Shown: piece by piece, positions 39,935-54,490 of the stretch
Layout: each line of letters begins with the position of its first letter
How positions within the stretch are numbered: position 1 is the first letter of the stretch
Virus record (IMG/VR): IMGVR_UViG_3300042363_001351
Location: 46,606-110,605 of that record
Strand: one strand, 5' to 3'
Length of the DNA stretch: 64,000 nt
Origin: a virus
Taxonomy: Duplodnaviria > Caudoviricetes
Position numbers and translations under genes: made by a program
Notes under the pieces: model-generated
Database searches by the model: none
Told to the model about the DNA's origin: nothing
Seen by the model: the letters and a program-made list of their open reading frames with translations, nothing else

Positions 39935-40780
39935 ATGGTTGAAAGGAAAGAAAAGATAGGCGTTGGTATTATTACTTGTAACAGACCTGATTATTTAATT
40001 GGTCTTTTAAATTCTTTAGTTCAATGCGAAGATATTATTGATGAACTAGTTATAATCAATGATGGTAACCCTGTTAAAGATTTCAAATCTCCTCTTAAAA
40101 ACTATAATTGGTTGGATAATCCTGAAAATATAGGGGTAGGTAAATCGAAAAATAAAGCTATGCAACATCTCTTAGATAAAGAATGTGATTTTATCTTTAT
40201 TATAGAAGATGATATGATTATATTAGACCCTACTATATTTACCAAATATATAGAAGCATACAAGTTAAGTGGTATACATCACTTTAACTACGGGCCAGGT
40301 TCACCATTTAATCGTAAACAGGATATTCAATTTGATTTACATAATAGACATCTACTCAAGCAAGACACGGAACCTAATCCAAAAATGGTATTGGATTATA
40401 AAACAGTAAAGGTTTCCTTGTTTGAGCATACTGTAGCGATGTTTTCTTTCTTTACTAAGGAGGTACTCGAGAAAGTTGGTCTTATAGATGAAAGGTTTTA
40501 TAATGCTTGGGAGCATGTTGATCATACATATCGCATTATAAAAGCTGGATATCATCCGCCATTTTGGTGGTTTGCAGATTTATATGACAGTCATAAGTAT
40601 CTTACAGAAGCTCCCGGAGCTATAGATAACTCTTCCATTGCCAATAAAACAGAACAATGGGAAAAAAATGTTTATGGTGGGAGAGAAATATATAAGCAGA
40701 AACATGGTCACTATCCTAATCAGCCACCTTATACCTCGAAGGATGAGGTTATTAAAACAATCAAACATTTAAAAAAATAA
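39935..40780 (+). CDS. GT2 glycosyltransferase
   Basis: IITCNR, INDG, N.GV...KN, IEDD, DERF..AWEH.D. Confidence 0.85.
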   Translation: MVERKEKIGVGIITCNRPDYLIGLLNSLVQCEDIIDELVIINDGNPVKDFKSPLKNYNWLDNPENIGVGKSKNKAMQHLLDKECDFIFIIEDDMIILDPTIFTKYIEAYKLSGIHHFNYGPGSPFNRKQDIQFDLHNRHLLKQDTEPNPKMVLDYKTVKVSLFEHTVAMFSFFTKEVLEKVGLIDERFYNAWEHVDHTYRIIKAGYHPPFWWFADLYDSHKYLTEAPGAIDNSSIANKTEQWEKNVYGGREIYKQKHGHYPNQPPYTSKDEVIKTIKHLKK

Positions 40781-41367
40781 TGATATTATCTAAAAACGAA
40801 CTAGACAGTCAAAATATTGAAGAATTTGAAGATCTCTTACAAGAATATAAAAAGATATCTCCAAAATATTTTATGGAGATTGGATCGATGTACGGCTGGT
40901 CTTTGCAGCATTTTATTCATTATGGTGAATATGAATCTACTGCTGTAGTAGTTGACTTGCCGGTTAGACATTTCGTAGGACCGGGAGACTGGAGAGTAGA
41001 AAAACAGGAATATAATTATAAAAATGAATGGCCTAAATGGGCCAAGGAAAGGAAATGTAAGTTGTTTTTAATTCCAGATAGTTCGCTTAAGCAGACTACT
41101 CTGCAGAAAGTACGAGACATTTTAGGTAATAATAAGCTTGACTTTCTTTTTATAGATGGAGATCATAGGTATGAAGCTATTAAGTCTGATTATGAAATGT
41201 ATTCACCTCTTGTAAAGAAAGGTGGTGTAGTGGGATTTCATGATATAGGCGAAAAGGAAGAAGGTGGCGGTCGTCGGTTTTGGCTAGAAATAAAAGATAA
41301 GTTTCAGCACAGAGAAATCTTAAAAGATAAAAATAAAGAAAAAGGCATAGGTTTATTATATGTTTAA
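40780..41367 (+). CDS. Class I SAM-dependent methyltransferase
   Basis: MEIGS..G, DFLFIDGDH.YE...D, GG...FHD. Confidence 0.85.
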   Translation: MILSKNELDSQNIEEFEDLLQEYKKISPKYFMEIGSMYGWSLQHFIHYGEYESTAVVVDLPVRHFVGPGDWRVEKQEYNYKNEWPKWAKERKCKLFLIPDSSLKQTTLQKVRDILGNNKLDFLFIDGDHRYEAIKSDYEMYSPLVKKGGVVGFHDIGEKEEGGGRRFWLEIKDKFQHREILKDKNKEKGIGLLYV

Positions 41368-42181
41368 AATTGCCGTCGGTACAAATTTATTTGGTTCATG
41401 CCCTAGACAAGATCTAGGGATACAGAGTTTACTTAAGTGTAAAAAAATACTGGGTGATCAAATTGATCTTTTTAATGTACAATTTGCTAACGGTAAGGAC
41501 TTAACAGAGCATAGCGAAATAAAGACATTAAAATGTTTAACAAAAACCTCTAAAGAAGTATGTAATGGTGAGAGAGAGCTTCCAATAGTTCGTGAAATAT
41601 TCGATAAATTAGCTGATCTAGGGTATGATTATTTTTGCTTTGTTAATTCTGATATAATTGTTACCCCTAATTTTTTTAAAGAAATTCTAAAAGAAAATCA
41701 TGAAGCTTATATTGCTTCGCGTTTAGCTATCGAAGGAGATATACAGGATTTAAATTTTACTATTTCTATAAACGAATCAAAAGGTAAGGTAAGAAATAGC
41801 CATTATCAAGTTTCTGGTTTCGACGCTTTTACTATAAAAACTGATTGGTGGAAGGAAAATAGACTTATTTTCCCTGAGTACGTATTTGCTGTAGTATATT
41901 GGGACACGCATTATGCTACATTATTGCTAAAAAATGCAGATACATATATGCAAAATAAAAAACCAACATTATTTCACATAATACACGAAGATAAGTCCTC
42001 GTCACAGTGTGAAGAGTTCTTTTATAATCAGGATACTTTTTCGAAAAAGTATACAGAGGATTTTAATCTATGGCACAGATTTTTATTTGAAGTTCTTCTA
42101 AGAAGAGGTATTAATAATAACTATGTGTATCCTTTTCCTGATGAGATAGAAAAACAATATCAATATTTTAAATCAAACTAA
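41360..42181 (+). CDS. GT-A-like protein
   Basis: FCFVNSDI, GFDAF, WD, H..H. Confidence 0.6.
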   Translation: MFKIAVGTNLFGSCPRQDLGIQSLLKCKKILGDQIDLFNVQFANGKDLTEHSEIKTLKCLTKTSKEVCNGERELPIVREIFDKLADLGYDYFCFVNSDIIVTPNFFKEILKENHEAYIASRLAIEGDIQDLNFTISINESKGKVRNSHYQVSGFDAFTIKTDWWKENRLIFPEYVFAVVYWDTHYATLLLKNADTYMQNKKPTLFHIIHEDKSSSQCEEFFYNQDTFSKKYTEDFNLWHRFLFEVLLRRGINNNYVYPFPDEIEKQYQYFKSN

Positions 42182-43059
42182 TGATAGTACAGATTACAAT
42201 TACTAAAAACGAGTGCTTTTTATTAAAGGAAATGTTGCCTATATGGAGCAAGTATGCTGATGGATTTTTATTTTATAATGATGATTCGACAGATGATACT
42301 CTTGAGTTTCTCGAACAAAATAAAGAAAAATACAATATCCTCTCTATTATAAACAGACGGGAAGATAACTCAAAACATCTCAAGATGGAATCCAATATGA
42401 GGCAGCAGCTTTATGATGAAGCTTTAAAATATACAGATAAAATTATTTGTATGGATTCAGATGAATATCTTGAAAGTGATTTAACTAAGGAAAACTTAGA
42501 AAATATACTAGATCAAGCTACTGACTGTACCTTTTATCTTCAATGGGTTCAATATGCTAGTAAGGATACCGTTAGGGTTGATGGTAGTTGGAAGTGGACT
42601 CCTACGGATAGAATAGGTAAATACAATCAAAGAGCTCTCTACCCTACAAGTCAATCACATTCACTTCATTTACCTCAAACAACAAACGCACAAATATTTC
42701 CTCCTGATGTAATGTATATAGCTCACTTACAGTGGCTAGATAAAAGATGGGTCGGAGTAAAGCAATATTATTGGAAGGTATGGGACTATATAAATAGACT
42801 TATTCACAATGTTAAGACTATCGGCTCTGAGGGGTACGATCATTCTGTAAATAATTTTGAATGGGAGTATGCTTACGCGCCAAAGGAACTAAGAGTTAGA
42901 GAAGATATTTATAAAGTACAAGATATGAAAAAGAATGATAAATTACTTCTTATTCAAGAATATACACAAAAATATGATATACCTAATTTAGGAGATTGGG
43001 GCATGGGCATTTACGACTATATTACTAAAAAAAATAACACCGAATCGAAAGATAGATAA
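42181..43059 (+). CDS. GT2-like glycosyltransferase
   Basis: KNE, DDSTDDT, MDSDE motifs. Confidence 0.75.
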   Translation: MIVQITITKNECFLLKEMLPIWSKYADGFLFYNDDSTDDTLEFLEQNKEKYNILSIINRREDNSKHLKMESNMRQQLYDEALKYTDKIICMDSDEYLESDLTKENLENILDQATDCTFYLQWVQYASKDTVRVDGSWKWTPTDRIGKYNQRALYPTSQSHSLHLPQTTNAQIFPPDVMYIAHLQWLDKRWVGVKQYYWKVWDYINRLIHNVKTIGSEGYDHSVNNFEWEYAYAPKELRVREDIYKVQDMKKNDKLLLIQEYTQKYDIPNLGDWGMGIYDYITKKNNTESKDR

Positions 43060-43061
43060 TT

Positions 43062-43913
43062 ATGTATTTTTGTACAGCAGCCGATAGCGGCCATTATCCT
43101 GTTTTATTAAACATGATAGGCTCTTTGTTCAAACACAATGCTCAAAGTATTGAAGGTATAGCTGTGTTTGACTTAGGTCTAACAGCTAGCGAGATTAACG
43201 AAATTAAAAAAATAGACAAAGTTCAAGTTGTCGAAGTTGAGAAAATTCACCCTCTTATTATAACACCGCTTCATTCAGACAATAGTAGATGGGTGAAAGG
43301 TCTTTTTTCATGGAAAGCTGTAGCTATAAAACAAGCCTTGGAAATGTTTCCTTATGTACTGTATTTAGATGCAGGTACAACTATACTCAAACCCCTCGAT
43401 CCGCTTTTTAAACATATACTACAGAATGATTATTTTATTACTGACTGCGGACACTCTATCAAATGGATGACTACTAAATATATTATTAATAAATTTAGAC
43501 TAAACACATCACAAACAGATTGGATTTTAAGGGATAGTGTATTAGGTATTGATGCAGGGTTTATTGGTTTAACGCAAAAAATGTATAATCAATTTATTTT
43601 ACCGCTTTACGAGCTATCCAAAGAAATTCAAAATTTCGTTGATGATGGTACCTGTCCTGAAGGTTGGGGTACAGCAAGACACGATCAAACCCTATTCAGT
43701 ATACTAGCTAGGCAGTTAGATTTAACTGTACTAAACCATGATAGAGAAATTGAGGAATGCATTTTAACTTACAGTGATTATAAGACACCTTTTCATATAA
43801 CCCACGCAGCTCACAAAGTACGTGAAGATACTTGTATATATAGATCGAGAAGAAATATAGATATGAATATGTTAAATCATCATATTAGTTTTTTAAGAAA
43901 ATCTTCTAATTAG
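43062..43913 (+). CDS. GT-A-like protein (DUF1647-like)
   Basis: VFDLGL, SWK, LYLDAG, RHDQTLFS motifs. Confidence 0.6.
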   Translation: MYFCTAADSGHYPVLLNMIGSLFKHNAQSIEGIAVFDLGLTASEINEIKKIDKVQVVEVEKIHPLIITPLHSDNSRWVKGLFSWKAVAIKQALEMFPYVLYLDAGTTILKPLDPLFKHILQNDYFITDCGHSIKWMTTKYIINKFRLNTSQTDWILRDSVLGIDAGFIGLTQKMYNQFILPLYELSKEIQNFVDDGTCPEGWGTARHDQTLFSILARQLDLTVLNHDREIEECILTYSDYKTPFHITHAAHKVREDTCIYRSRRNIDMNMLNHHISFLRKSSN

Positions 43914-43916
43914 TCT

Positions 43917-44723
43917 ATGAAAATAGCATTATGCTTAGCGGGTCAAATAAGAACCTTAGACGCGAAAATAGTAATACAAAGTCTTAAGACTTTTTTTCTA
44001 CAAAACTACGACTGTGATGTCTATATTAGTACTTGGGACAATCGAGGGGTATCATATTGTCACGGTAATGTGAGTGAGGCTGAACGAATTAAATCTAATA
44101 ATTTAATAACTGCAGACGTAATCCGAGACATAATTCCAGGTAGTCTTGTAGAAGTAGAAAATTTGAATCAATGGATAGAAAATCTCACACCGGAATATAG
44201 ATGGTACTACGAAAACTGTCATGTACATCATAAGGGATTTCTACCACAGCTCTATAAAAAGCATAGAGCTTATGAAATGATTAGAGATAGATCAGAGGTA
44301 AATTATGATTATATCATAATAACAAGACCTGATATATTTTATTGGGAGAATTTAAACATAGAAAAATATTTAAAAGAAAAAAACACTATATTTAATTTTA
44401 ATCTCGAAGGTAGTATGTGCTACCATCCAAGCAGAATATACGATATCTTCTACATGGGCGATAGGGAAAGTGTTGAAGGTATATCTGAGACATATAACAA
44501 TATTAAGTACTTACTAGACGATCCGTTCGGTAGCGGGTTGGATACATTTGATGCTTGTAAGATGTTATATTTGTTTGCTAGAAAATATAAAAACTTGAAC
44601 GTTCAAACAGTTAGTTCAATTCCAGGAGCTATATTTAGAGGTGATACTGAAACAGAAATGCATTACTATTCTAAACTAACAGGGTTTGACGTTGATACTC
44701 TTAAAAAACAAATTAATATTTAA
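43917..44723 (+). CDS. Glycan-locus hypothetical protein (putative transferase)
   Basis: MKIALCLAGQIR, ISTW, YD..I.TRPD. Confidence 0.55.
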   Translation: MKIALCLAGQIRTLDAKIVIQSLKTFFLQNYDCDVYISTWDNRGVSYCHGNVSEAERIKSNNLITADVIRDIIPGSLVEVENLNQWIENLTPEYRWYYENCHVHHKGFLPQLYKKHRAYEMIRDRSEVNYDYIIITRPDIFYWENLNIEKYLKEKNTIFNFNLEGSMCYHPSRIYDIFYMGDRESVEGISETYNNIKYLLDDPFGSGLDTFDACKMLYLFARKYKNLNVQTVSSIPGAIFRGDTETEMHYYSKLTGFDVDTLKKQINI

Positions 44724-44724
44724 A

Positions 44725-46587
44725 ATGAAAATTATAATACCTCTCAACGGTAAGGGAGCTAGATTTAGTGAAAAGGGATATACTGATAGTAAGCCGTTTA
44801 TAAATATAAACGGTACTAGTATTTTGTGTAACGTAGTTAAGTCTCTTAATATTGATAAAGAAGAGTTAATTATACTAGCAAGAAAAGAATATACAAAAAA
44901 TAATTTAGATTTTTATCTTTATAAAAACTTTCCTAAGATTAAAAGTAAAGTAGTATATCTAGAAAAGGATACCATTGGCCCAGCTGATACTCTTCTTACA
45001 GGCCTTAAAAGCCTTTATAACGGTACTCTAGTAGATGAACCCTTCTTAGCTATAGACAGTGATACTATTTACAATGATGAAATTATATCTAAGCTAAAAG
45101 ATATAAACTCACCTTGTATTTTTTATTCTGAAACTACAGAAGAAGCACCTCTTTATTCGTATATTAAAATTGATGAAAACAATAACGTAGTTGATATAGC
45201 GGAAAAAATAAAAATCTCTAATCTCGCTAACACTGGAGCATACTTTTTTAATTCTTCTAAGAGGTTTTTTGAAATAGCTGAGAGTCTTTTAGAGGTTAAT
45301 AAAGATAATAGAGAAATCTATACCTCGCTAGTTTATAAAAAGATGATAGATGATGGCGCTCCTGTAAAGAGTATCTTTGTAAATAGTTTTAATGCGGTAG
45401 GTACTCCTTTGCAGTTGCAGAACTACAGTATGAACAATAAATCAAAACCTAAAAGATTTGTATTTGACTTAGATAACACTCTTGTAACTCACCCTAGAGT
45501 TTCTGGTGATTATAGTACGGTAGAGCCTATAACGGAAAATATAAATTTCTTAAAACATTTAAAGGATGCAGGTAATTATATTATTATATATACCGCTAGA
45601 AGAATGAAAACGCATAGTGGCAATGTTGCAAAAGTAGTAGCAGATATAGGCGATATAACTATACAAACACTCAAAAAATATGACATACAATATGATGAGT
45701 TGCAGTTTGGTAAACCTTATGCAGATTTTTATATTGACGATTTAAGTATTAATCCGTTAAAGGAGGATTTACAGCAGTGCACTGGTTTCTACTATCCTAA
45801 AAAAGTAGAGTCGAGACCTTTTAATACTGTCGAAATAATCGGCGACATAGTTACTAAAAGAGGTAATATATCGGGTGAGATTTATTGGTATAAGAACTGC
45901 CCGTACTATATTATAGATAAGTATTTCCCAAAAATTTATAGTTTGAGCGACAGCTTCATACAGATGGAGAGAGTAGAGGGAGCCTCGTTTTCACACCTTT
46001 ATACAAGCGGACTAGTAACTGAGACTATCTTATCTAAGATATTAACAGCACTAGATGATATTCATAAATTCAACGAACCTCGTAAAGGTGTCTATATTAA
46101 TAATTATAAAGAAAAAATATTAAAAAGATTTGAAGAAAACAAACAATTATATGCTTCTCTAAATGGTTCAAATGCGGTACTATCTGATTTAATAGAAGCT
46201 TTCGATAATTATAAAATAGAAGATGGTAGTATTATTCATGGAGACCCGGTCTTTTCTAATATATTTTTAACTACCAGTAATGATATAAAATTCATAGATG
46301 TAAGAGGTAGTAATGGATGCGAATTAACAATATATGGCGATCCTCTTTATGACTATGCAAAAATCTATCAGTCAATATTAGGGTATGATTTTATATTACT
46401 TGGTAAGGAGATAGATTTGCAGATAGTTGAAGAGATGAGAAGAATCTTTATTGATCTTATTACAAAGAAAAATATAGACATTGATATAGTTTCGCATATA
46501 ACAAAAAGTCATATTTTTAGTCTACTTCCTCTTCATACTGACGAAGTAAAGATTAAAAAATATTTCGATCTAATAAAAACAATTTAA
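44725..46587 (+). CDS. Trifunctional sugar nucleotidyltransferase + HAD phosphatase + APH-type kinase
   Basis: IP..GKGARF...KP and DSD; FDLDNTL, TAR, GKP.ADFYIDD; HGDP..SN, FID.RG, YDYAK. Confidence 0.8.
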   Translation: MKIIIPLNGKGARFSEKGYTDSKPFININGTSILCNVVKSLNIDKEELIILARKEYTKNNLDFYLYKNFPKIKSKVVYLEKDTIGPADTLLTGLKSLYNGTLVDEPFLAIDSDTIYNDEIISKLKDINSPCIFYSETTEEAPLYSYIKIDENNNVVDIAEKIKISNLANTGAYFFNSSKRFFEIAESLLEVNKDNREIYTSLVYKKMIDDGAPVKSIFVNSFNAVGTPLQLQNYSMNNKSKPKRFVFDLDNTLVTHPRVSGDYSTVEPITENINFLKHLKDAGNYIIIYTARRMKTHSGNVAKVVADIGDITIQTLKKYDIQYDELQFGKPYADFYIDDLSINPLKEDLQQCTGFYYPKKVESRPFNTVEIIGDIVTKRGNISGEIYWYKNCPYYIIDKYFPKIYSLSDSFIQMERVEGASFSHLYTSGLVTETILSKILTALDDIHKFNEPRKGVYINNYKEKILKRFEENKQLYASLNGSNAVLSDLIEAFDNYKIEDGSIIHGDPVFSNIFLTTSNDIKFIDVRGSNGCELTIYGDPLYDYAKIYQSILGYDFILLGKEIDLQIVEEMRRIFIDLITKKNIDIDIVSHITKSHIFSLLPLHTDEVKIKKYFDLIKTI

Positions 46588-46625: not shown

Positions 46626-47954
46626 ATGACGAATAAAAAAGAAGCTATCTTACAGCTCGTTAAAGAATTTGTAGCAGAAAACGCCGAGCAAAAAAAATGG
46701 GTTGCTGGTAAAGACTGGGTACAGTACGCAGGACCGTTTTTTGACGAAAATGAGTATGTAGCTTCTATCGAGACGTTGCTTAATGGATGGTTGGTCTTAG
46801 GCCGTTGCGGTATTAATTTTGAAAATAAATTTCCTAAATTGCTCGATAAGCAATATGGCATTCTGACAAATAGCGGCAGCAGTTCTAATCTAATTATGAT
46901 GTCCGCTCTAACTTCAAAAAGGCTCTATAATCTCAAGAAAGGTACAAAGGTCATAACACCGATTGCTGGATTCCCTACTACTATCAACCCTATTTTTCAA
47001 TTAGGATTTGAGCCTCTGTTTGTTGATATAGATTTAGACACATTAAATCTAAATCTAGACCAGGTCGAGCAAAAGGCTAAAGAAGGAGCTAGAGTTATTA
47101 CTTTTGCTCACGTTCTAGGAAATCCTCCTAATATGGACGATCTGATGCAAATCGTTAAAAAATATGATCTTATTTTATTAGAAGATTGTTGTGATGCACT
47201 AGGATCGACATATAGAGACAAGCCTTTAGGAAGCTTCGGAGAATTTGCAAGCTGTTCATTTTACCCTGCGCATCATATTACTATGGGTGAAGGTGGTTTC
47301 GTAGCATGTAATACGCATCAACAGGAGATTGTAGCAAGAAGCTTTAGAGAATGGGGAAGAGGATGTTATTGTGTAGGTATGAAGGCTGGATTGCTTAAAA
47401 ACGGATCCTGTGGAAATCGTTTTAGTAATTGGCTTCCGTCTCTACCAGATGAAATTTTTGACCACAAATATGTTTATGATGAGATAGGCTATAACTTAAA
47501 ACCTATTGAAATTCAAGCCGCAATGGGTCTTGAACAAATTAAAAAATTGCCTCAAATTACCGAGAGACGTAAGCATAACCACTTTAAATTAGTTACTATA
47601 TTCAAGCAATTCGAAGAATATTTTATTATTCCTAAAGCTACTGAAAACAGTGATCCTAGCTGGTTTGCGTTCGCCTTAACAATAAAAGACAGAGCGCCCT
47701 TTAAAAGAAAAGACATAGTTGATTTTTTTGAATCGAATAAAATTCAAACTAGACCCTATTTTGCTGGTAATATTATGCTACAACCCGCTTATGAAGGTCT
47801 TATGGATAAGAATGAGGTAATTAATAATTATCCTAATGCTAGAAAGGTTACTACAGATACATTCTTTCTAGGAACCAGTCCTGTAATAACTGATGAGCAG
47901 CTTGACTATATAGAAAACGTGCTTAAATCTTTTATACAGTCACGCGTATTATAA
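46626..47954 (+). CDS. rfbH: NDP-4-keto-6-deoxyhexose 3-dehydrase (E1/DdhC type)
   Basis: NSGSSSNL, EDCCDALG, SFYPAHHITMGEGG (His instead of the PLP Lys), WGRGCYC...C, DHKY. Confidence 0.9.
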   Translation: MTNKKEAILQLVKEFVAENAEQKKWVAGKDWVQYAGPFFDENEYVASIETLLNGWLVLGRCGINFENKFPKLLDKQYGILTNSGSSSNLIMMSALTSKRLYNLKKGTKVITPIAGFPTTINPIFQLGFEPLFVDIDLDTLNLNLDQVEQKAKEGARVITFAHVLGNPPNMDDLMQIVKKYDLILLEDCCDALGSTYRDKPLGSFGEFASCSFYPAHHITMGEGGFVACNTHQQEIVARSFREWGRGCYCVGMKAGLLKNGSCGNRFSNWLPSLPDEIFDHKYVYDEIGYNLKPIEIQAAMGLEQIKKLPQITERRKHNHFKLVTIFKQFEEYFIIPKATENSDPSWFAFALTIKDRAPFKRKDIVDFFESNKIQTRPYFAGNIMLQPAYEGLMDKNEVINNYPNARKVTTDTFFLGTSPVITDEQLDYIENVLKSFIQSRVL

Positions 47955-47975
47955 AAATACTCGTGTAGTTTTTAT

Positions 47976-48929
47976 ATGAAAAAAATTGTATATATTACAG
48001 GGTGTTTAGGTTTTATAGGTTCTTATATAACGAGAGCGTGTCTTAATCGTGGATGGTATGTAAAGGGTGTTGATAAAATCACTTACGCAGCAAATAAGAG
48101 TATACTCAACGAGTTTAATAATTATAATAATTTTTCATTTGTAAATAGAGATATAAATGAGCTTAAGTTTTTATACGACTGCGATTATGTAATTAATACA
48201 GCAGCAGAGACTCACGTTGGTAATTCTATCGTTAATAGTGATGAATTTGTACACTCTAATATTAACGGGGTACATAATCTTCTAGAGCTTATTAAAAACC
48301 ATCGAGGTGAAAATTCTTCAAAGCCTATTTTCTTACACTTCAGCACCGATGAAGTGTATGGAGACATTGAGCAGGGTCTCCATACCGAGCAAGATTTACT
48401 CAAGCCTAGTAATCCCTATTCAGCAACAAAAGCAGCTGCTGATATGCTTGTATTAGCTTGGGCTAGAACCTACAACCTACCTTATATTATAATTAGACCT
48501 ACCAACAATTACGGTATAGGTCAATATGTTGAGAAACTTATTCCTAAATCGTGTAAATATCTCAACGTAGGTAAAAAAATACCTATTCACAACAGCGGAG
48601 AACCTATACGTAACTGGCTTCATGCAGAAGATACTGCTAATGCAGTTATTACAATAATTGAATCTAACTCTGTAAATGAGGTATATAATATTTGCGGAGG
48701 CTTTGAACAAAGCAATCTCGAAACGGTAGTAAAATTAATAAAGGCATACGGTATCGACAAAAACAAAGTTAACAATTATATAGACTGGTCTTGTAATAGA
48801 CCTGGTCAAGATGTTAGATATGCTTTAGACGACTCGAAGCTTAGATCTCTAGGGTGGGAGCCTAAAAAAGAATTTGACGTTGAAATTAAGGCAATTACAG
48901 ACTATTATAAAGATAGGTTTATATGGTAA
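47976..48929 (+). CDS. rmlB: dTDP-glucose 4,6-dehydratase
   Basis: GCLGFIG, DKITYA, AAETHV, STDEVYG, YSATK, NNYG, RPGQD.RY. Confidence 0.9.
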   Translation: MKKIVYITGCLGFIGSYITRACLNRGWYVKGVDKITYAANKSILNEFNNYNNFSFVNRDINELKFLYDCDYVINTAAETHVGNSIVNSDEFVHSNINGVHNLLELIKNHRGENSSKPIFLHFSTDEVYGDIEQGLHTEQDLLKPSNPYSATKAAADMLVLAWARTYNLPYIIIRPTNNYGIGQYVEKLIPKSCKYLNVGKKIPIHNSGEPIRNWLHAEDTANAVITIIESNSVNEVYNICGGFEQSNLETVVKLIKAYGIDKNKVNNYIDWSCNRPGQDVRYALDDSKLRSLGWEPKKEFDVEIKAITDYYKDRFIW

Positions 48930-48971
48930 GTAGTATAAATTTTTTGTATATAAAAAACTTTTAAAAATATT

Positions 48972-49769
48972 ATGAATGCAAGAGAAGGTAAATGTGTAAA
49001 GATTCTAACTGATCTTATTGAAAATGACGGCCTAGTAGGTATAAAAACTAGTTTTGAAGACGAAGGTGCGACGTTTAATGAGACTATTCGTTTAAAGGAA
49101 ATTTGTAATCAATCTAAGACTAAGATTACACTTAAAATTGGCGGGCCTGAAGCAATACGCGATTTAAAAGACTCACTAATTATAGGTGTAAAGGGATTAG
49201 TAGCACCAATGGTAGAGTCAGAATTTGGGTTAAAAAAATTCATTCAAGCTACTAAAATACATATTACTGAAAGTGTTCTATCATCATTGCAGTTAAATAT
49301 AAACGTCGAAACAATTACATCAGTTCAAAATGTAGAAAAAATGCTTGAATCTGTAGAGTCGAAAGACCTATACGGAGTGACGGTTGGAAGAGTAGACCTT
49401 GTCTCATCTATGGGTAGAGATAGGCAGTACGTAAATAGTGACGAAATATATAAATTGACTAAATCGGTATTCACTAAAGTTAAAGCGAAAGGATTAAAAG
49501 CTTGTTTAGGAGGAGCAGTATCAGTAGAGTCTTTAGAGTTTCTTAAAAATCTTCACTCTGAAGGTCTTTTAGATAAGTTCGAAACACGGTATGCAATATT
49601 TGATCCATCCATTACATTAAAAAATCTATCTAGAGCTCTTTCAAAAGCTCAAATGTTTGAATATGAATGGTTGATGTGCAAACATGAACAGTATAATATC
49701 GCATCAAACCAAGACATTAAGCGCATTCAGATGATTCAAGATAGGATCAACCAATCTGTTAGTTATTAA
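48972..49769 (+). CDS. HpcH/HpaI aldolase / citrate lyase-like protein
   Basis: KIGGPEA..D, APMVES.F, NVET, GRVDL..S. Confidence 0.75.
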   Translation: MNAREGKCVKILTDLIENDGLVGIKTSFEDEGATFNETIRLKEICNQSKTKITLKIGGPEAIRDLKDSLIIGVKGLVAPMVESEFGLKKFIQATKIHITESVLSSLQLNINVETITSVQNVEKMLESVESKDLYGVTVGRVDLVSSMGRDRQYVNSDEIYKLTKSVFTKVKAKGLKACLGGAVSVESLEFLKNLHSEGLLDKFETRYAIFDPSITLKNLSRALSKAQMFEYEWLMCKHEQYNIASNQDIKRIQMIQDRINQSVSY

Positions 49770-50404
49770 TGAACGTTCTCATTACAGGAGCCTCTAGAGG
49801 TATAGGTAAATCTATATCAAAAATATTTACTGATAACAATCATCAAGTCTATGCCCCTACGCGAAGTGAGCTAGATTTAACCAGGAGACCTGTACTTAGA
49901 GAAACTAATTTTGATATTATTATTAATAATGCTGGTATAAATCCTTTAAACTCGATAGACGAAATAGCAGATAACGATGTAATGCAGGTAAACTACCTGT
50001 CACCGCTAGAAATAATACAACAGTGTCTACCACACATGATAAAACAAAAATACGGTAGAATAATTAATATAGGTAGTATTTGGATTGAGATTGCTAAATC
50101 AAAAAGACTTGCGTATAGTGCTAGTAAAAGTGCGTTACATTCTTTAACAAAAGCTTTAACTGTAGAGCATGGTCATACTAATATTCTTGCTAATACCGTC
50201 TCACCTGGTTTTATAGGTACGAGTCTAACGTTTGAAAATAACTCAGAAGAGGAAATTAATAATTTAATACAAAAAGTTCCTATCGGTAGGTTAGGATATC
50301 CAGAGGAAATTGCAAACATCGTTTACTATCTTACAGTTAATAATAACTTTATTACAGGTCAAAACATAATAATAGATGGAGGATTTTCATGTACAACGAA
50401 TTAA
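49769..50404 (+). CDS. Short-chain dehydrogenase/reductase
   Basis: TGASRGIG, NNAG, YSASK, PG, IDGG. Confidence 0.9.
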   Translation: MNVLITGASRGIGKSISKIFTDNNHQVYAPTRSELDLTRRPVLRETNFDIIINNAGINPLNSIDEIADNDVMQVNYLSPLEIIQQCLPHMIKQKYGRIINIGSIWIEIAKSKRLAYSASKSALHSLTKALTVEHGHTNILANTVSPGFIGTSLTFENNSEEEINNLIQKVPIGRLGYPEEIANIVYYLTVNNNFITGQNIIIDGGFSCTTN

Positions 50405-51420
50405 CAATAAGCTCTAAAATAAAAAACTATAAAGTAAGATTTATTAACTCTATTAATGATATTGTTTTAATGTGTGAACAAAACAATACTATTACGTTTG
50501 TAGATAAAAAAGTAAAAGAGTCTTTTTCGCAATTGTCGATTGATGGCTTTGTTGAAATTGATAGTAGTGAGGATATAAAAACTCTTGAAGGGGCGGAATT
50601 TATATACAATATTCTTTCTAATAAAAAAGCAAATAAGCACACTAAGGTTATTGTAATCGGAGGTGGAGTTCTTCAAGATCTTATAGGTTTTTGCGCTTCT
50701 ACTTACTGCAGAAGCATACAATATACTCTAATACCTACTACATTATTAGCTCAAGCAGATAGCTGTGTAGGGGGTAAGACGTCGCTAAACTTAAAGGGTA
50801 AAAAAAATATTTTAGGTACATTTTACCCTCCTAGTGAGATTGTAATCTTACCCGATTTTACGCAAACTTTGTCACCTACGGATCTTATTAGCGGCTTAGG
50901 AGAAATATATAAATTTCACATTTTGCAGAGTGTAGTGCGGTCCTTTAATACTCATAAAATTGCTGATATGGTCTATAAGGGTCTTGAATATAAAATTGAC
51001 ATTATATCACGCGACGAGTTCGATGAGTCAGAAAGAAAGTTTCTCAACTTTGGTCATACCTTCGGACATGCCTTGGAGTCTATATCTAATAATAAAGTGC
51101 CGCATGGTGTCGCTGTTATTGCAGGATGTATGTTAGCTTTATCAGTATCAAAAAGAAAAAATTACGACATTCAAGACTATCAATATACGCTCGATCTTGG
51201 ATTATCACTCATCAGTAAGAGTGGTATTGTATTTAAGAGAGAGTGGTTTGAGTTGTTAGATCTGTTAGATATAATAAAATCTGATAAGAAAAGTACCGGT
51301 AAATTAACAATGGTTTTAATGAACAACGGGCCTATATTAGAAGATATTGAAGATTTGTCTATTATCGAACAATCTATTACAGAGTTATGCGAGTATCTGA
51401 CTACATTATACAGTATTTAA
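50389..51420 (+). CDS. 3-dehydroquinate synthase-like sugar-phosphate cyclase
   Basis: GGGVLQD, PTTLLAQADSCVGGK, KN..G.F..P, LNFGHTFGHALES, HG.AV. Confidence 0.88.
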   Translation: MYNELTISSKIKNYKVRFINSINDIVLMCEQNNTITFVDKKVKESFSQLSIDGFVEIDSSEDIKTLEGAEFIYNILSNKKANKHTKVIVIGGGVLQDLIGFCASTYCRSIQYTLIPTTLLAQADSCVGGKTSLNLKGKKNILGTFYPPSEIVILPDFTQTLSPTDLISGLGEIYKFHILQSVVRSFNTHKIADMVYKGLEYKIDIISRDEFDESERKFLNFGHTFGHALESISNNKVPHGVAVIAGCMLALSVSKRKNYDIQDYQYTLDLGLSLISKSGIVFKREWFELLDLLDIIKSDKKSTGKLTMVLMNNGPILEDIEDLSIIEQSITELCEYLTTLYSI

Positions 51421-53117
51421 GAGATGAATATAAAGTAGATACTATATTCACCGTATCGGGCGGTGGATGTATTTTTCTTATTGACTCCTTAGGAAAGACA
51501 GAAGGTGTTAAATATATTGCACCTCATCACGAGCAAGCTGCTGCAATAGCAGCTGAAGGTTACGCTCGTTTAAATAATAAGCTTGGAGCATGTATAGTAA
51601 CAAGCGGACCTGGCGGTACTAATGCTATTACAGGTACTTTATGTAGCTGGCTTGACTCTATTCCAGTTATTGTTATAAGCGGTCAAGTTAATAAGGAAAT
51701 GACGACAAATTACACCGACCTGCCGCTACGTCAGCTAGGTGATCAGGAGTTTAATATTATCGAGTCAGTAAAAAATATGACTAAATTTGCTAAGCAAATC
51801 AATAACTCTAAAGATATAAAATATTATCTCGATAAAGCCTGCAAACTTGCTACTACAGGTAGACCAGGACCAGTATGGTTGGATATACCTCTAAACGTTC
51901 AATCTGAAAATATTAACCCAGACGAGTTAGAAGGGTGGAGTGATTTAGAGGAACTACCTGAACCTACTAACATTGAAATTGATAAAGTTTTAGAAGAGTG
52001 GTCAAAGGCAAAAAAACCTCTAATGATTGTAGGTCACGGAGTTAGGTTAAGTAACGGTATAGATAAACTACATCAACTTTTAGGACAAGTTAATATACCG
52101 ACTATTACAGCTGTCAATGGTAATGATATAGTAAATTCTGATTACCCATATTATTACGGTAGGTTTGGTACCCACGCGCAAATTTGCGCTAATAAACTAC
52201 TAAGCGAATGTGACTTTTTACTTACTATAGGTAGTAGACTTTATGTAAGACAGACGGGATATAACTTTAAAGGATTTGCAAAGCAGGCATATAAGGTCCA
52301 TGTAGATATAGATAAAGGCGAGCTAGATAAACCTACTTTATTTAGCGATTTGAAAATTCATTCTGATGCAAAAAAATTTATTGAAAAGATTGTTAATAAA
52401 AAAATTCCACAAACAGATCTAAAATGGATAGAGGAATGCGATAGAATTAATATATCATCTCCTAAGGTATTACAAAGACATAGAGATAATATAAACTATG
52501 TAAGTCATTATGCCTTTCTAGAAAAATTATCTAAGTTAATGCCTCGTGATCATCACATAGTAACTAGTGATGGGTCAGCTAATGTAGTGACTATGCAAGT
52601 TATGGATCTTACAGGTGATCAGAGACTTATAACTAATACAGGCTGCGCTCCTATGGGATATGGTCTACCTGCTGCTATAGGTGCTTCTATACATCATAAA
52701 ATAATATGCTTGGAAGGTGATGGTAGTTTACATTTAAATATACAGGAACTTCAAACAGTAAAGCACTACAATCTTCCTATTAAAATAATTCTATTAAATA
52801 ATGACGGTTATCTTTCTATAAAGATCTCGCAAAAAACTTTCTTTAATGGCAATTATGTCGCCTCGGAAAAAAATAGCGGGGTATCGTTTCCTAGTTTTGA
52901 AAAAATAGTAAAAGCGTACGATATTCCCTACACTAGCATAAGAAAGAACGCAGATATTGAGACAGCTCTAGAGAGTTTTTTAAGCTGTGAGGGCCCCTGT
53001 GTGTGTGAGGTCTTTACTGATCCTAATGAATACCATGAACCTAAGGTAATGGCTAAACTAGATCAAAGCGGTAAAATGATTCCAGGCGAACTGGAGAATA
53101 TAAAATGGATAGAATGA
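51387..53117 (+). CDS. ThDP-dependent carboligase (YerE/acetolactate synthase-like)
   Basis: HHEQAA..AAEGYAR, TSGPGGTN, GRPGPV..DIP, MGYGLPAAIG, GDGS...NN. Confidence 0.88.
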   Translation: MRVSDYIIQYLRDEYKVDTIFTVSGGGCIFLIDSLGKTEGVKYIAPHHEQAAAIAAEGYARLNNKLGACIVTSGPGGTNAITGTLCSWLDSIPVIVISGQVNKEMTTNYTDLPLRQLGDQEFNIIESVKNMTKFAKQINNSKDIKYYLDKACKLATTGRPGPVWLDIPLNVQSENINPDELEGWSDLEELPEPTNIEIDKVLEEWSKAKKPLMIVGHGVRLSNGIDKLHQLLGQVNIPTITAVNGNDIVNSDYPYYYGRFGTHAQICANKLLSECDFLLTIGSRLYVRQTGYNFKGFAKQAYKVHVDIDKGELDKPTLFSDLKIHSDAKKFIEKIVNKKIPQTDLKWIEECDRINISSPKVLQRHRDNINYVSHYAFLEKLSKLMPRDHHIVTSDGSANVVTMQVMDLTGDQRLITNTGCAPMGYGLPAAIGASIHHKIICLEGDGSLHLNIQELQTVKHYNLPIKIILLNNDGYLSIKISQKTFFNGNYVASEKNSGVSFPSFEKIVKAYDIPYTSIRKNADIETALESFLSCEGPCVCEVFTDPNEYHEPKVMAKLDQSGKMIPGELENIKWIE

Positions 53118-53884
53118 AGTCTATTTTAATAACAGGAGGAAATGGTTATATAGCAAAAAGTCTATTTAACAATCTATCCGATGACTATGAGGTAACTTCT
53201 ATTTCTCGTAGTAACTTTGATTTAACTAATAGAAGCGAGGTCAATAATTTTTTTCAAAACAAATATTTTGATATAGTAATTCATACTGCTGTTATTGGAG
53301 GTAGTAGATTAAAACAGGAGAACTCTATTGTACTGGATAGTAATTTACAAATGTATTATAATCTTTTAGAAAATAAATCTCATTTTACGAAGTTTCTACA
53401 TTTTGGTTCAGGCGCTGAGTTATATGCCCGCAATACTCCATATGGCTTGAGCAAATATATTATTAACGAGTCTCTCAAAGAGAAAGAAAATTTTTATAAT
53501 ATAAGAATCTTTGGTTTGTTTGACGAGGAAGAGATTTATACACGCTTTATAAAAGGTAACATAATAAGATACATAAAAGGAGAACCTATACAAATTTTTG
53601 AAAATAAAAAAATGGACTTTTTTTATATGCGCGATCTTCATACACTAGTTAGACATTATATAGAAAAAGATAATCCGCCTAGTGAAGTTAATTGCTCTTA
53701 TGATACAAAAGTAAGTCTTAAAGATATTGCTAATAAAATTAATTTATTGAGCAACTATACTGTACCGATTATCTGTAACGATACAAAAGGTATAGATTAT
53801 ATAGGTGACAAGTGTATTATAGATTGCGAGCTTATTGGTCTAGATAAAGGCATTAATTATGTTTATAGTGACTTGAAAAAATAA
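53105..53884 (+). CDS. NAD-dependent epimerase/reductase
   Basis: TGGNGYIA, GSGAE, YGLSK. Confidence 0.85.
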   Translation: MDRMKSILITGGNGYIAKSLFNNLSDDYEVTSISRSNFDLTNRSEVNNFFQNKYFDIVIHTAVIGGSRLKQENSIVLDSNLQMYYNLLENKSHFTKFLHFGSGAELYARNTPYGLSKYIINESLKEKENFYNIRIFGLFDEEEIYTRFIKGNIIRYIKGEPIQIFENKKMDFFYMRDLHTLVRHYIEKDNPPSEVNCSYDTKVSLKDIANKINLLSNYTVPIICNDTKGIDYIGDKCIIDCELIGLDKGINYVYSDLKK

Positions 53885-53905: not shown

Positions 53906-54490
53906 ATGATTATCGAACAACCTATCTATAATGGAGATTTAATTCACAAGCGCTTTGCTTATCAGTTTTTTAAGAAGGAAGTATCGCCGTATGGTAATAT
54001 TGTTGCTTTTCGCGCTCCCATGTACGTTAGCGATAACCTTATCGATCTAGAAGATTCTCTCAGTAAGGACTTTATCTTTAGTGATGACGCTATTAACTTT
54101 TGTTGGGAAATTCCAAATCTTTGCCCGTTTGGTGCAGTGGCGTTTCAGCGACTTTTCAATGCAACTATTGCTAATATTCTCGCTATGATAATTAAAAAGC
54201 CGCTTGAGATGAAAGGTGACGATATTATGGTTCATGATACCTTTATAGGTGGTTCTGATAAAAAACAATACGAAGTAGGTAAGGTTAGTGTATCTATTAC
54301 CTACTCTAAGGAAGGAGTAGCTATTGGTCATACCGGTATTAATATTAACGCTGGTAATAAGGCTCCGGGTTTTGCATATAGCTCAAAATTAACAGATGAT
54401 CAAGCTATCAATCTAATGCATGCAGCTATTAATTACTTCAATGAAGAGATTAAAGACATGCAAATTGCTACTACAAAAGTTATTGTATGA
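53906..54490 (+). CDS. DUF366-like protein (lipoate/biotin ligase-like fold)
   Basis: YNG..I...FAY, IVAFR, DLED, FQRL, GDD, K.SVSI, HTGINI. Confidence 0.7.
   Translation: MIIEQPIYNGDLIHKRFAYQFFKKEVSPYGNIVAFRAPMYVSDNLIDLEDSLSKDFIFSDDAINFCWEIPNLCPFGAVAFQRLFNATIANILAMIIKKPLEMKGDDIMVHDTFIGGSDKKQYEVGKVSVSITYSKEGVAIGHTGININAGNKAPGFAYSSKLTDDQAINLMHAAINYFNEEIKDMQIATTKVIV

Follow-up and report, generated by a model that had tools for sequence, protein, structure and literature searches.

A T4-like phage gene cassette that probably encodes a viral version of the bacterial acyl-branched 3,6-dideoxyhexose pathway

Which product is formed by a phage cassette that combines sugar-nucleotide enzymes with look-alikes of dehydroquinate synthase (DHQS) and acetolactate synthase (ALS)? 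The source is an uncultured T4-like phage. The window, the whole stretch of 64,000 nucleotides analysed here, is phage DNA, as a previous sequence-only reading had held: genes for a portal and for gp3-like, gp4-like and gp21-like proteins are located at 57.6-62.9 kb. The whole record comprises 110.6 kb at ~52% completeness, and the gene-absence searches cover that record. Family assignments and motifs point to a phage-borne version of the bacterial acyl-branched 3,6-dideoxyhexose pathway, the type behind yersiniose, erwiniose and caryophyllose, and the phage product is probably a caryophyllose-type C12 sugar; we infer the chemistry from these assignments. The two look-alikes are then probably sugar enzymes, not amino-acid enzymes. 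The genes are as follows:

39935-44723, + strand: GT2-like glycosyltransferase array with a methyltransferase and ORFs of unknown function (PF00535, PF13704, PF13578)
44686-46587, + strand: nucleotidyltransferase/HAD (EcbF-BcbF type)/kinase-like fusion gene (PF00483, TIGR01689, APH)
46626-47954, + strand: RfbH/E1 3-dehydrase gene (NF011936, 480 bits, cut-off 423; match to PDB 3BCX)
47976-48929, + strand: NDP-glucose 4,6-dehydratase gene, RmlB type (TIGR01181, 303 bits)
48972-49769, + strand: HpcH/HpaI-fold aldolase gene (PF03328, 39 bits, and AlphaFold model)
49769-50404, + strand: classical short-chain dehydrogenase/reductase (SDR) gene, 211 aa (adh_short/adh_short_C2, 117-119 bits)
50389-51420, + strand: DHQS-like gene (TIGR04425, 294 bits; aroB model TIGR01357, 233 bits)
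51387-53117, + strand: YerE/JanthE-like ThDP carboligase gene, three-domain (PDB 8RPH, 375 bits)
53105-53884, + strand: extended-SDR reductase gene, 259 aa (PF01370, 69 bits)

Seven intact co-directional genes fill 46626-53884, and the catalytic motifs are intact in all seven proteins. The enzyme set that the sequence-only reading had placed there was recovered in full, with every ORF at its position, on the + strand and with the domains assigned. The proposed coupling of the last five genes, aldolase to reductase, was borne out by overlapping or abutting junctions (-1, -16, -34 and -13 nt). The functional unit reaches upstream to 39935, beyond the seven cassette genes. The fusion gene combines PF00483 (36 bits; Arch_glmU-like nucleotidyltransferase, 62 bits), TIGR01689 (67 bits, residues 256-357) and a weak APH match. 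It is the sole NTP_transferase of the record and is not kept in related loci; it possibly supplies the activated sugar, and its membership of the cassette is uncertain. The glycosyltransferase/methyltransferase array, whose position is occupied by other sets of this kind in related loci, probably represents the users of the sugar.

The 4,6-dehydratase is present as previously named, refined here to the RmlB type: the dTDP-type model TIGR01181 scored 303 bits (below the cut-off of 365), the CDP-type model TIGR02622 only 70. GxxGxxG, TDE124 and Y148xxxK are all there, and identity is 59-77% across 46 related loci. The enzyme would convert NDP-glucose into NDP-4-keto-6-deoxyglucose. The E1-type PMP/[2Fe-2S] dehydrase would then remove the 3-hydroxyl group with electrons from a host reductase. 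The protein matches E1 (PDB 3BCX/3BB8) with 351-355 bits and contains the conserved SFYPAHHITMGEGG, with His replacing the Schiff-base Lys. Its Cys ligands are CC188 and C247-Y-C...x12...C, compared with CYCAPGCDNTC in E1. An E3-type reductase/ferredoxin (PF00175, PF00111) was not found in the 110.6 kb, ~52% complete record. Its absence had been noted before, but is not a phage anomaly, the bacterial counterparts also being without a clustered E3. In many related loci and in giant-virus loci, a DegT-type enzyme of ~30% identity takes the place of E1, and 3-deoxygenation is therefore not universal among related loci.

The aldolase matches HpcH_HpaI (PF03328) weakly. Its AlphaFold model (pLDDT 95.3) has a fold in agreement with class II pyruvate aldolases, with SbnG, HpaI, GarL, HpcH and YfaU as best Foldseek matches (TM ~0.6). 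The protein occurs in more than 900 metagenome clusters. It is proposed to produce a phosphorylated 3-deoxy-2-ulosonic acid: pyruvate and a phosphorylated aldose would give a DAHP-like 3-deoxy-2-ulosonate phosphate, with erythrose 4-phosphate as a guess for the acceptor aldehyde.

The best PDB match of the ThDP enzyme is JanthE (8RPH), followed by PpYerE (5AHK, 246 bits) and plant AHAS (~230 bits). The protein stays under every NCBIfam ALS cut-off (352 versus 538), which agrees with its previous description as YerE-like and not an acetolactate synthase. Its motifs comprise HEQ48 and GDG444...NN. The reductase contains Y113xxxK; its gene follows that of the ThDP enzyme in 52 of 54 HpcH-anchored loci and is also found in most variant-c loci and in giant-virus loci. 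A role as YerF/ErwF-like reducer of the branch ketone is proposed.

The DHQS-like protein scored below the cut-offs of both TIGR04425 (400) and the aroB model (305). Phylogenetically, it clusters with TIGR04425, apart from housekeeping AroB (SH-aLRT 97%). Every DHQS motif residue for metal, phosphate and carboxylate is invariant in the family, implying a DAHP-like acid as substrate; K202 and R216 are presumably the carboxylate binders, as in the Aspergillus nidulans DHQS structure. The adjacent SDR carries TGASRGIG, NNAG, S103 and Y116xxxK. Both genes come or go jointly in HpcH-anchored loci, and an SDR adjoins true TIGR04425 genes in all eight cases whose flanks were fetched. The DHQS-like protein is proposed to be a ulosonate-7-phosphate phospholyase.

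Intact DHQS catalytic residues and enzyme names derived from domain matches would also suit a genuine AroB and a genuine acetolactate synthase, which would raise the host's production of aromatic and branched-chain amino acids during infection; the prasinovirus literature files such genes under amino-acid synthesis (PMC5371798, PMC5454428). This auxiliary metabolism is highly improbable. Both proteins remain under the curated cut-offs (aroB and every ALS model), JanthE and YerE are nearest to the ThDP enzyme, and the tree sets the DHQS-like protein away from AroB. Translational coupling ties both genes to those of sugar-nucleotide enzymes, and in other loci the DHQS-like gene is exchanged for a phosphatase and the aldolase for a NeuB-type synthase. 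DAHP synthase, type I dehydroquinase and the ALS small subunit were not found in the 110.6 kb record (~52% complete). The previous statements that other shikimate and branched-chain genes are missing and that aroB/ilvB labels would mislead thus hold.

The order 4,6-dehydratase, HpcH-type aldolase, SDR, DHQS-like, ThDP enzyme, reductase is kept in about 45 of 55 related viral contigs, so the arrangement lies far beyond chance. More than 50 viral contigs contain the block, as do giant-virus MAGs and two Bacteroidota chromosomes, the latter with ThDP-SDR-TIGR04425-HpcH and, in one of them, RfbH as well. The giant-virus loci L138 and L145 contain homologues of the phage ThDP, aldolase, DHQS-like, SDR, reductase and 4,6-dehydratase genes. 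Upstream of the ThDP enzyme, all four combinations of an HpcH- or NeuB-family synthase with or without the SDR-DHQS pair occur. When the pair is absent, an ORF of 131 aa for a HAD-type phosphatase fills the slot. Its DxDG/T/K/DD motifs are invariant and all three members match the BT0820 family; the top fold match is 2OBB, followed by KdsC-like proteins, with weak scores (E ~1e-3; model pLDDT 68). In Arsenicibacter, a HAD_2 phosphatase adjoins ThDP-HpcH, together with a bona fide RfbF, a CDP-glucose dehydratase and RfbH. Both phosphatases imply that the aldol product is phosphorylated. Overall, comparative genomics supports the proposed order of steps. The block variants and the TIGR04425 grouping lead us to infer a DAHP-like phosphorylated ulosonate as origin of the ThDP donor.

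Two separate products are conceivable as well, with the ThDP enzyme using pyruvate to form a yersiniose-like C2-branched sugar, and aldolase, DHQS-like protein and SDR forming a separately transferred deoxy-ulosonic (sialic-like) acid. Other viral contigs and Bacteroidota do carry SDR-DHQS modules beside CMP-type cytidylyltransferases and without any ThDP enzyme, and JanthE also accepts pyruvate (PMC12188165). Against this, ErwE-type enzymes reject pyruvate (PMC9306805), and the ~52% complete record yielded no CMP-type cytidylyltransferase (CTP_transf_3). The aldolase remains tied to the ThDP gene even without DHQS-like gene and SDR (variant b, Arsenicibacter), and the ThDP clades follow the donor-making genes, a pattern that kinship alone could yield. 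A division into two products is thus quite unlikely. The previous suggestion that the aldolase builds an extended donor for the ThDP enzyme is most likely correct.

The sequence-only reading had further allowed a carbocyclic donor. The DHQS-like enzyme would finish the aldol ring closure and the SDR reduce the ring ketone, an equally plausible SDR substrate. Either the free DAHP-like acid would give dehydroquinate or a quinate-type cyclitol acid, or, after ThDP coupling, the sugar-attached phosphorylated branch would close to a 4-C-cyclohexyl (cyclitol-branched) sugar. The residue set of a cyclising DHQS is wholly invariant, and the motif residues compared hold no signature dividing cyclising from non-cyclising enzymes. 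Bacteria are known to form carbocyclic sugars, caryose among them, and the enol-pyranose intermediate of DHQS reportedly cyclises spontaneously in solution (Bartlett and Satake, 1988); SDR interception before ring closure is therefore an assumption. Nevertheless, a cyclised acid is unfit as decarboxylative ThDP donor because ring closure destroys the 2-oxoacid, yet SDR, DHQS-like, ThDP and reductase genes are translationally coupled. The conserved carboxylate-binding positions favour a free-acid substrate, and closure onto the branch carbonyl would rob the YerF-like reductase, retained with and without the DHQS-like gene, of its substrate. A simple phosphatase can fill the SDR-DHQS slot. Sister SDR-DHQS modules are accompanied by KdsB/NeuA-type cytidylyltransferases and by GT29-like transferases; such machinery serves open-chain ulosonic acids and needs a glycosidic, ulosonic-type donor. 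A carbocyclic product by either route is accordingly rather unlikely, and the carbocyclic donor gives way to phosphate elimination without cyclisation.

In the preferred acyl-branched pathway, the DHQS-like protein and the SDR probably dephosphorylate and deoxygenate the donor without ring closure. Phosphate would be eliminated by DHQS chemistry, and the SDR would reduce the resulting keto/enol group ahead of ring closure, giving 3,7-dideoxyheptulosonate with the 2-oxoacid retained. The ThDP enzyme would decarboxylate this acid and attach the acyl anion at the keto-sugar's C4. Reduction of the branch carbonyl by the 259-aa reductase would result in NDP-3,6-dideoxy-4-C-(tetrahydroxyhexyl)hexose, which the upstream glycosyltransferases and methyltransferase may put onto an acceptor.

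In the actinomycete pathway to the antibiotic spinosyn, forosamine biosynthesis involves SpnQ, an E1 homologue whose TDP-sugar substrate is 2,6-dideoxy. SpnQ has no dedicated E3 and uses general cellular ferredoxin or flavodoxin reductases. Both the missing E3 and the RmlB-type partner of the phage thus have a precedent. A 'unifying scheme' has been published for acyl-branched sugars (Steitz et al. 2022, PMC9306805). In it, the 2-oxoacid made by an aldolase is joined to NDP-4-keto-3,6-dideoxyhexose by a ThDP enzyme before a reductase completes the sugar. Every enzyme class of this scheme was found intact in the phage, and because the set fits, the cassette is regarded as a virus-borne variant of an already known type of pathway. 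The enzyme logic of the exotic sugar previously proposed fits; the pathway type itself was already published, including an HpcH-family aldolase for caryophyllose.

Caryophyllose formation in Mycobacterium marinum involves an HpcH-family aldolase (MMAR_2331), a ThDP carboligase (MMAR_2332) and a reductase (PMC9306805). Shared with the phage are 4,6-dehydratase and E1 for the 4-keto-3,6-dideoxyhexose, an aldolase likened by family for a gamma-hydroxy-2-oxoacid, a YerE-like ThDP enzyme coupling at C4 and a final NAD(P)H reductase. Caryophyllose is 3,6-dideoxy-4-C-(1,3,4,5-tetrahydroxyhexyl)hexose (PMC5706390). Its branch equals the predicted C6 branch of the phage product and corresponds to decarboxylated, reduced 3,7-dideoxyheptulosonate, which counted in favour of the pathway. 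In contrast to the published scheme, the pathway here is encoded by a virus, with a dehydratase of the RmlB type instead of the CDP type, and the ~52% complete record encodes neither RfbF nor E3. The SDR and DHQS-like pair, unmentioned in the scheme, is an addition; the 7-deoxy donor would therefore originate from a phosphorylated DAHP-like acid rather than from pyruvate and a 4-deoxytetrose. While the pathway logic is known, the spread of the block, the NeuB and HAD exchanges and the TIGR04425 grouping of the DHQS-like protein are new.

Among solved structures, JanthE from Janthinobacterium sp. HH01 (PDB 8RPH/8RPI/8RPJ) comes closest to the phage ThDP enzyme (residues 14-572 aligned). Together with YerE/PpYerE, both belong to a three-domain ThDP family with ketone acceptors and 2-oxoacid donors. 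In the ThDP motif, JanthE has CDG instead of the canonical GDG seen in the phage protein; the physiological substrates of JanthE are unknown (PMC12188165). AroB and TIGR04425, labelled 'AroB-related putative sugar phosphate phospholyase (cyclizing)' (NCBIfam), share fold and full DHQS motif residue set with the phage protein, and all TIGR04425 genes examined are paired with an SDR gene, as in the phage. The phage protein differs in lacking a shikimate context, in its gene position between aldolase and ThDP enzyme, and in its proposed phosphate elimination without ring closure. The published gene table of OtV5 lists acetolactate synthase (037f), 3-dehydroquinate synthase (039f), an epimerase (041r), an aminotransferase (042f) and dTDP-glucose 4,6-dehydratase (043f). 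Compared via this table, OtV5 has its genes in the same order and on the same strands as L138 and L145. The prasinovirus and giant-virus proteins are 30-44% identical to those of the phage, with a DegT-type enzyme where the phage has E1. The matching order suggests that the prasinovirus "ALS/DHQS" genes have been misfiled, and the copies in algal giant viruses may likewise be sugar enzymes.

The window forms the final 64 kb of an IMG/VR virus record of 110.6 kb (estimated completeness 52%). The record encodes a portal protein with only ~30% identity to counterparts in cyanophages and other T4-like phages, which indicates a distant T4-like myovirus. When the entire region was used as a nucleotide query against cultured phages, no match was obtained. 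All seven open reading frames claimed in the sequence-only reading were recovered with the same coordinates and domains. They follow an array of glycan-related genes and precede the phage structural genes:

from 39935: upstream array of GT2-like genes, a methyltransferase, unknown ORFs and a 633-aa fusion protein
46626-47954, + strand: E1 (RfbH), NF011936 above its curated cut-off
47976-48929, + strand: RmlB-type 4,6-dehydratase, PF16363 190 bits, TIGR01181 303 bits
48972-49769, + strand: aldolase, weak HpcH_HpaI match
49769-50404, + strand: SDR, 211 aa, domain match
50389-51420, + strand: DHQS-like protein, domain match
51387-53117, + strand: ThDP enzyme of three domains, domain match
53105-53884, + strand: extended-SDR reductase, 259 aa, domain match
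57.6-62.9 kb: phage structural genes (portal, gp3-like sheath stabiliser, head-completion, prohead-protease)

The catalytic motifs are intact across all seven proteins. The last five genes overlap or abut (junctions of -1, -16, -34 and -13 nt), in line with the coupling proposed for them. A TATAAAT ahead of the aldolase gene was considered as a T4 late promoter and dropped, as TATAAATA is not enriched (12 found vs 17.8 expected). Between the reductase, which it immediately follows, and a gp62-like clamp-loader gene lies a DUF366 gene (53906-54490). Of the related loci, only L022 shows this arrangement (63% identity), and the DUF366 gene is therefore probably a phage backbone gene rather than a part of the cassette.

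The ThDP enzyme was compared with solved structures. 8RPH (375 bits) is by sequence its nearest solved relative by far, ahead of PpYerE (5AHK, 246 bits) and plant AHAS (~230 bits). 8RPH is JanthE, a YerE-like enzyme which joins 2-oxoacids to ketones (PMC12188165, PMC12247030). The phage enzyme holds the canonical GDG motif, whereas JanthE has CDG. The catalytic glutamate and the GDG...NN motifs are present, and acceptance of a keto-sugar is predicted. The enzyme stays below every curated acetolactate synthase (ALS) cut-off (best 354 vs 738 and 352 vs 538). The reductase gene, which overlaps that of the ThDP enzyme, recurs in 52 of 54 HpcH-anchored loci and encodes a putative YerF/ErwF-like enzyme. 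For the aldolase, a phmmer search against the PDB gave no sequence match, so the fold was examined by AlphaFold and Foldseek. The model (pLDDT 95.3) matched the class II pyruvate aldolases HpaI, GarL, HpcH and YfaU, and also SbnG. The protein thus has the HpcH/HpaI fold and is the predicted supplier of a gamma-hydroxy-2-oxoacid donor.

These enzymes correspond to a published pathway logic for acyl-branched sugars. An aldolase forms a gamma-hydroxy-2-oxoacid, a YerE-like ThDP enzyme (ErwE, MMAR_2332, MyGE) transfers it to CDP-4-keto-3,6-dideoxyglucose, and a YerF-like reductase ends the pathway; for caryophyllose, the aldolase is MMAR_2331, a member of the HpcH/citrate-lyase family (Steitz, 2022; PMC9306805). 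The phage cassette holds each enzyme class of this scheme. The core of the earlier proposal, a sugar pathway with an extended donor, is therefore right, while the kind of pathway is not new, having been described already (PMC9306805).

The dehydratase carries the TDE and YxxxK motifs and scores 303 bits with the dTDP-type model, vs only 70 with the CDP type. An RmlB-type dehydratase implies that the nucleotide is probably not CDP. No RfbF was found in the record, so the CDP activation of the published scheme is lacking. Candidate sources of the NDP supply are the host or the 633-aa fusion (44686-46587), which combines a sugar-1-phosphate nucleotidyltransferase-like domain, a HAD domain and a weak APH-like kinase domain. 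No other nucleotidyltransferase was found in the record, and related cassettes do not conserve the fusion. Its HAD part (residues 256-357) is of the EcbF/BcbF capsule-biosynthesis phosphatase type; stand-alone ORFs of ~100 aa matching this part occur in four related loci (L039, L046, L121, L153).

E1 aligned over its full length with the Yersinia enzyme (3BCX, 355 bits). The PLP lysine is replaced by histidine (AHH215), and the cysteine ligands of the [2Fe-2S] cluster are kept (CC188, CYC247 and a fourth cysteine), with a longer spacer ahead of the last one (x12 vs x7). An E3 reductase had not been seen at first reading, and neither PF00175 nor PF00111 was detected in the 110 kb record (52% complete), nor was any FNR-type or ferredoxin gene. 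The bacterial counterparts G095 and G111 have no E3 near their clusters either. SpnQ, an E1 homologue, reportedly runs on general reductases, and the absent E3 is therefore no obstacle.

The DHQS-like protein scored 233 bits with the aroB model TIGR01357 (cut-off 305). The DHQS motifs GGK, KN, E..K, K..DE, R..LN.GHT.GHA, HG.AV and DKK are invariant in its family. Their residues are taken by us to serve catalytic, metal, phosphate and carboxylate roles, the conserved lysine and arginine presumably being the DAHP carboxylate binders of the A. nidulans DHQS structure. TIGR04425, an NCBIfam family of AroB-related putative sugar phosphate phospholyases, gave 294 bits (curated cut-off 400). Membership on this score was rejected, since ordinary Bacteroidota AroB reach nearly as high (230-286 bits), while true members exceed 420. 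In the DHQS tree, which like the ThDP tree is a quick one, a 97% branch separates five Bacteroidota housekeeping AroB from the true TIGR04425 members together with every viral DHQS-like protein. At clade level, kinship with TIGR04425 is judged real from this tree. A viral scan with the single DHQS-like sequence returned no relatives; an alignment query found them.

The aroB/ilvB labels would mislead, as had been foreseen: both proteins fall below the cut-offs, and the DHQS-like one lies apart from housekeeping AroB. With the ThDP and DHQS-like proteins as queries, cultured phages yielded only records with ordinary aroB/ilvB at no more than ~30% identity, mostly bacterial or contaminated entries. 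Neither DAHP synthase nor dehydroquinase was found in the record (52% complete), nor an ALS small regulatory subunit (TIGR00119), which agrees with the claim that other shikimate and branched-chain amino acid genes are missing. Scores below the cut-offs, genomic surroundings, absent partner genes and tree placement together make true amino-acid metabolism by AroB and ALS, as the labels would have it, very unlikely.

An SDR gene precedes the TIGR04425 gene in all eight true bacterial loci whose flanks were fetched. Clusters of ThDP, SDR, DHQS and HpcH genes occur in two of the eight (L155, L159), one of them with RfbH. The remaining loci hold a GFO/IDH/MocA oxidoreductase, an SIS isomerase, a transaldolase-family enzyme, DUF386 and a KdsB-type cytidylyltransferase. 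In the Bacteroidota locus L158 (5679-11306; also in L154, L160 and L161), a conserved run starts with the oxidoreductase, the isomerase, an SDR and TIGR04425, and continues with the transaldolase-family enzyme (300 bits), DUF386 (YhcH type) and the KdsB-like cytidylyltransferase. By its gene content, the run appears to be an uncharacterised ulosonic-acid-type pathway. This second context is also found in viral contigs, together with GT29-like transferases and aminotransferases. DHQS-like genes without ThDP are present in L124, L129, L134-L137 and L143 (about 5-14 kb) and in L121, L128, L146 and L153, within two recurring modules. The first comprises a GT29-like transferase, a CTP_transf_3 plus cupin protein, a class-III aminotransferase, SDR, DHQS, an epimerase and a DegT enzyme; the second comprises KdsB-like, DegT and DHQS genes. 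Both look like pathways to a CMP-activated deoxy- or amino-heptulosonic (sialic-like) acid. The partners of these DHQS modules handle ulosonic acids, which favours an open-chain product.

The aldolase belongs to more than 900 metagenome protein clusters, the best 120 at least 78% identical to the query, and is present on 55 IMG/VR contigs. The ordered block of 4,6-dehydratase, HpcH, SDR, DHQS, ThDP and reductase is kept in ~45 of these 55. E1 occurs in about half of the related loci and is otherwise replaced by a DegT-type enzyme (~30% identity). Across ~185,000 species genomes, the aldolase family turned up only six times, four of these in Bacteroidota. A 2.7 kb Nitrospirae MAG contig (L060, 701-2616) encodes an HpcH-like aldolase (40%) directly followed by a DHQS-like protein (38-41%), so the pairing exists beyond Bacteroidota and viruses. 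The 11.6 kb contig L057, assigned to a Terrimicrobiaceae (Verrucomicrobiota) MAG, has the full cassette with 51-76% identity and a GC content of 35%; most likely it is a mis-binned phage contig. The cassette also occurs on very large viral contigs (L037, 358 kb; L046, 210 kb). L046 shows a rearranged order of HpcH, SDR, a small HAD-like ORF, a 347-aa ORF, ThDP and DHQS, and its ThDP and DHQS proteins are both long-branch outliers.

Two kinds of module swap were observed. Nine loci contain HpcH, ThDP (~50% identical) and reductase and lack both SDR and DHQS, a conserved 131-aa ORF filling their slot. In this ORF, the HAD motifs DFDGV, T, K and DD are invariant. It matched the BT0820 HAD-phosphatase family in three of three members tested, with weak scores, and the fold matches of a moderate model (pLDDT 68) were BT_0820 first, then the Kdo-8-P and KDN-9-P phosphatases. 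Arsenicibacter rosenii has the order RfbF, CDP-glucose 4,6-dehydratase, RfbH (all bona fide), HAD_2 phosphatase, ThDP and HpcH; it thus possesses the RfbF and CDP-glucose 4,6-dehydratase which the phage record lacks. In ~16 further loci, 4,6-dehydratase, ThDP, SDR, DHQS and reductase are present and HpcH is absent, and a NeuB-family synthase of 356-361 aa adjoins the ThDP gene. As suppliers of a ThDP enzyme, HpcH and NeuB thus each occur both with SDR plus DHQS and without them, so that all four pairings exist, and the reductase accompanies the ThDP gene in the great majority of these variants. In one HpcH-only locus (L020, 11500-13481), genes for a methyltransferase and a sulfotransferase-family protein separate ThDP from the reductase, so the branched sugar may also occur in O-methylated or sulfated form. 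The swaps also bear on a reading in which the cassette yields two separate products. Such a split is possible but less favoured, given that no CMP-type cytidylyltransferase is present in the record and that HpcH remains linked to ThDP in the loci without DHQS.

The unrelated HpcH and NeuB enzymes both make 3-deoxy-2-ulosonic acids and take the same first slot, which points to that product class. The second slot is filled by a phosphatase in some loci and in others by an enzyme of the DHQS type, with a reaction that starts by phosphate elimination; this implies a phosphorylated acid. It would be DAHP-like, since the DHQS-like family keeps the carboxylate lysine and arginine and the metal and phosphate ligands. 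The ThDP step requires a 2-oxoacid. The YerF-like reductase, predicted to act on the branch carbonyl, is retained with or without DHQS. In the simplest consistent mechanism, the DHQS-like enzyme and the SDR would remove the phosphate with deoxygenation and without ring closure, yielding 3,7-dideoxyheptulosonate. Decarboxylative ThDP coupling and subsequent reduction would form a 1,3,4,5-tetrahydroxyhexyl branch, as present in caryophyllose (PMC5706390).

A carbocyclic product is the alternative to this open-chain route. The DHQS intermediate cyclises spontaneously, and a carbocyclic outcome is therefore possible. The ring might be closed on the sugar-bound branch. The ThDP enzyme would first put a phosphorylated six-carbon acyl chain on C4 of the keto-sugar; the DHQS-like enzyme would then eliminate the phosphate and cyclise onto the branch carbonyl, followed by reduction of the ring ketone by the SDR. 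That viruses carry an NDP-deoxyhexose with a cyclitol substituent formed in this way is improbable. To our knowledge, neither such a class of cyclitol-substituted, nucleotide-activated deoxyhexoses nor a biosynthetic route to it has been described.

Four giant-virus loci (L138, L145, L147, L151), two of them labelled GVMAG, encode homologues of ThDP (33-34%) and HpcH (37-44%), and further hold homologues of DHQS, SDR, reductase, a DegT enzyme and 4,6-dehydratase. L138 (3921-10847) and L145 (7419-14406) share the order ThDP(+), HpcH(-), DHQS(+), SDR(+), reductase(-), DegT(+), 4,6-dehydratase(+). The gene table of the prasinovirus OtV5 lists 037f as acetolactate synthase, 039f as 3-dehydroquinate synthase, 041r as epimerase/dehydratase, 042f as aminotransferase and 043f as dTDP-glucose 4,6-dehydratase (PMC2386258). 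According to this table, gene order and strands of 037f-043f equal the pattern of L138 and L145; by this analogy, 038 would correspond to the aldolase and 040 to the SDR, neither gene being named in the table. Reviews file the prasinovirus genes under amino-acid genes (PMC5371798, PMC5454428). In a literature search, no paper reinterpreting the prasinovirus ALS and DHQS genes was found.

Caryophyllose, erwiniose and similar sugars with long acyl branches had, as far as we know, been described only in a small number of bacterial surface glycans. The logic of their formation was proposed only in 2022 (PMC9306805). The cassette places it in abundant uncultured T4-like phages and also in giant-virus MAGs. 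Gene order extends the match to the cultivable OtV5. Since 2008, the "acetolactate synthase" and "3-dehydroquinate synthase" of this virus have been presented in the literature as viral amino-acid genes. A comparison of OtV5 with relatives without these genes could reveal the role of exotic glycans for virions. The natural swaps, HpcH against NeuB-type and SDR plus DHQS-like against HAD phosphatase, lead to a proposed, testable function for the uncharacterised TIGR04425 clade and its viral relatives, namely the removal of the terminal phosphate from a DAHP-like acid with deoxygenation. This would provide a 7-deoxy donor, the origin of which is not given by the published scheme; that scheme is without the SDR and DHQS-like pair, whereas the phage cassette has both.
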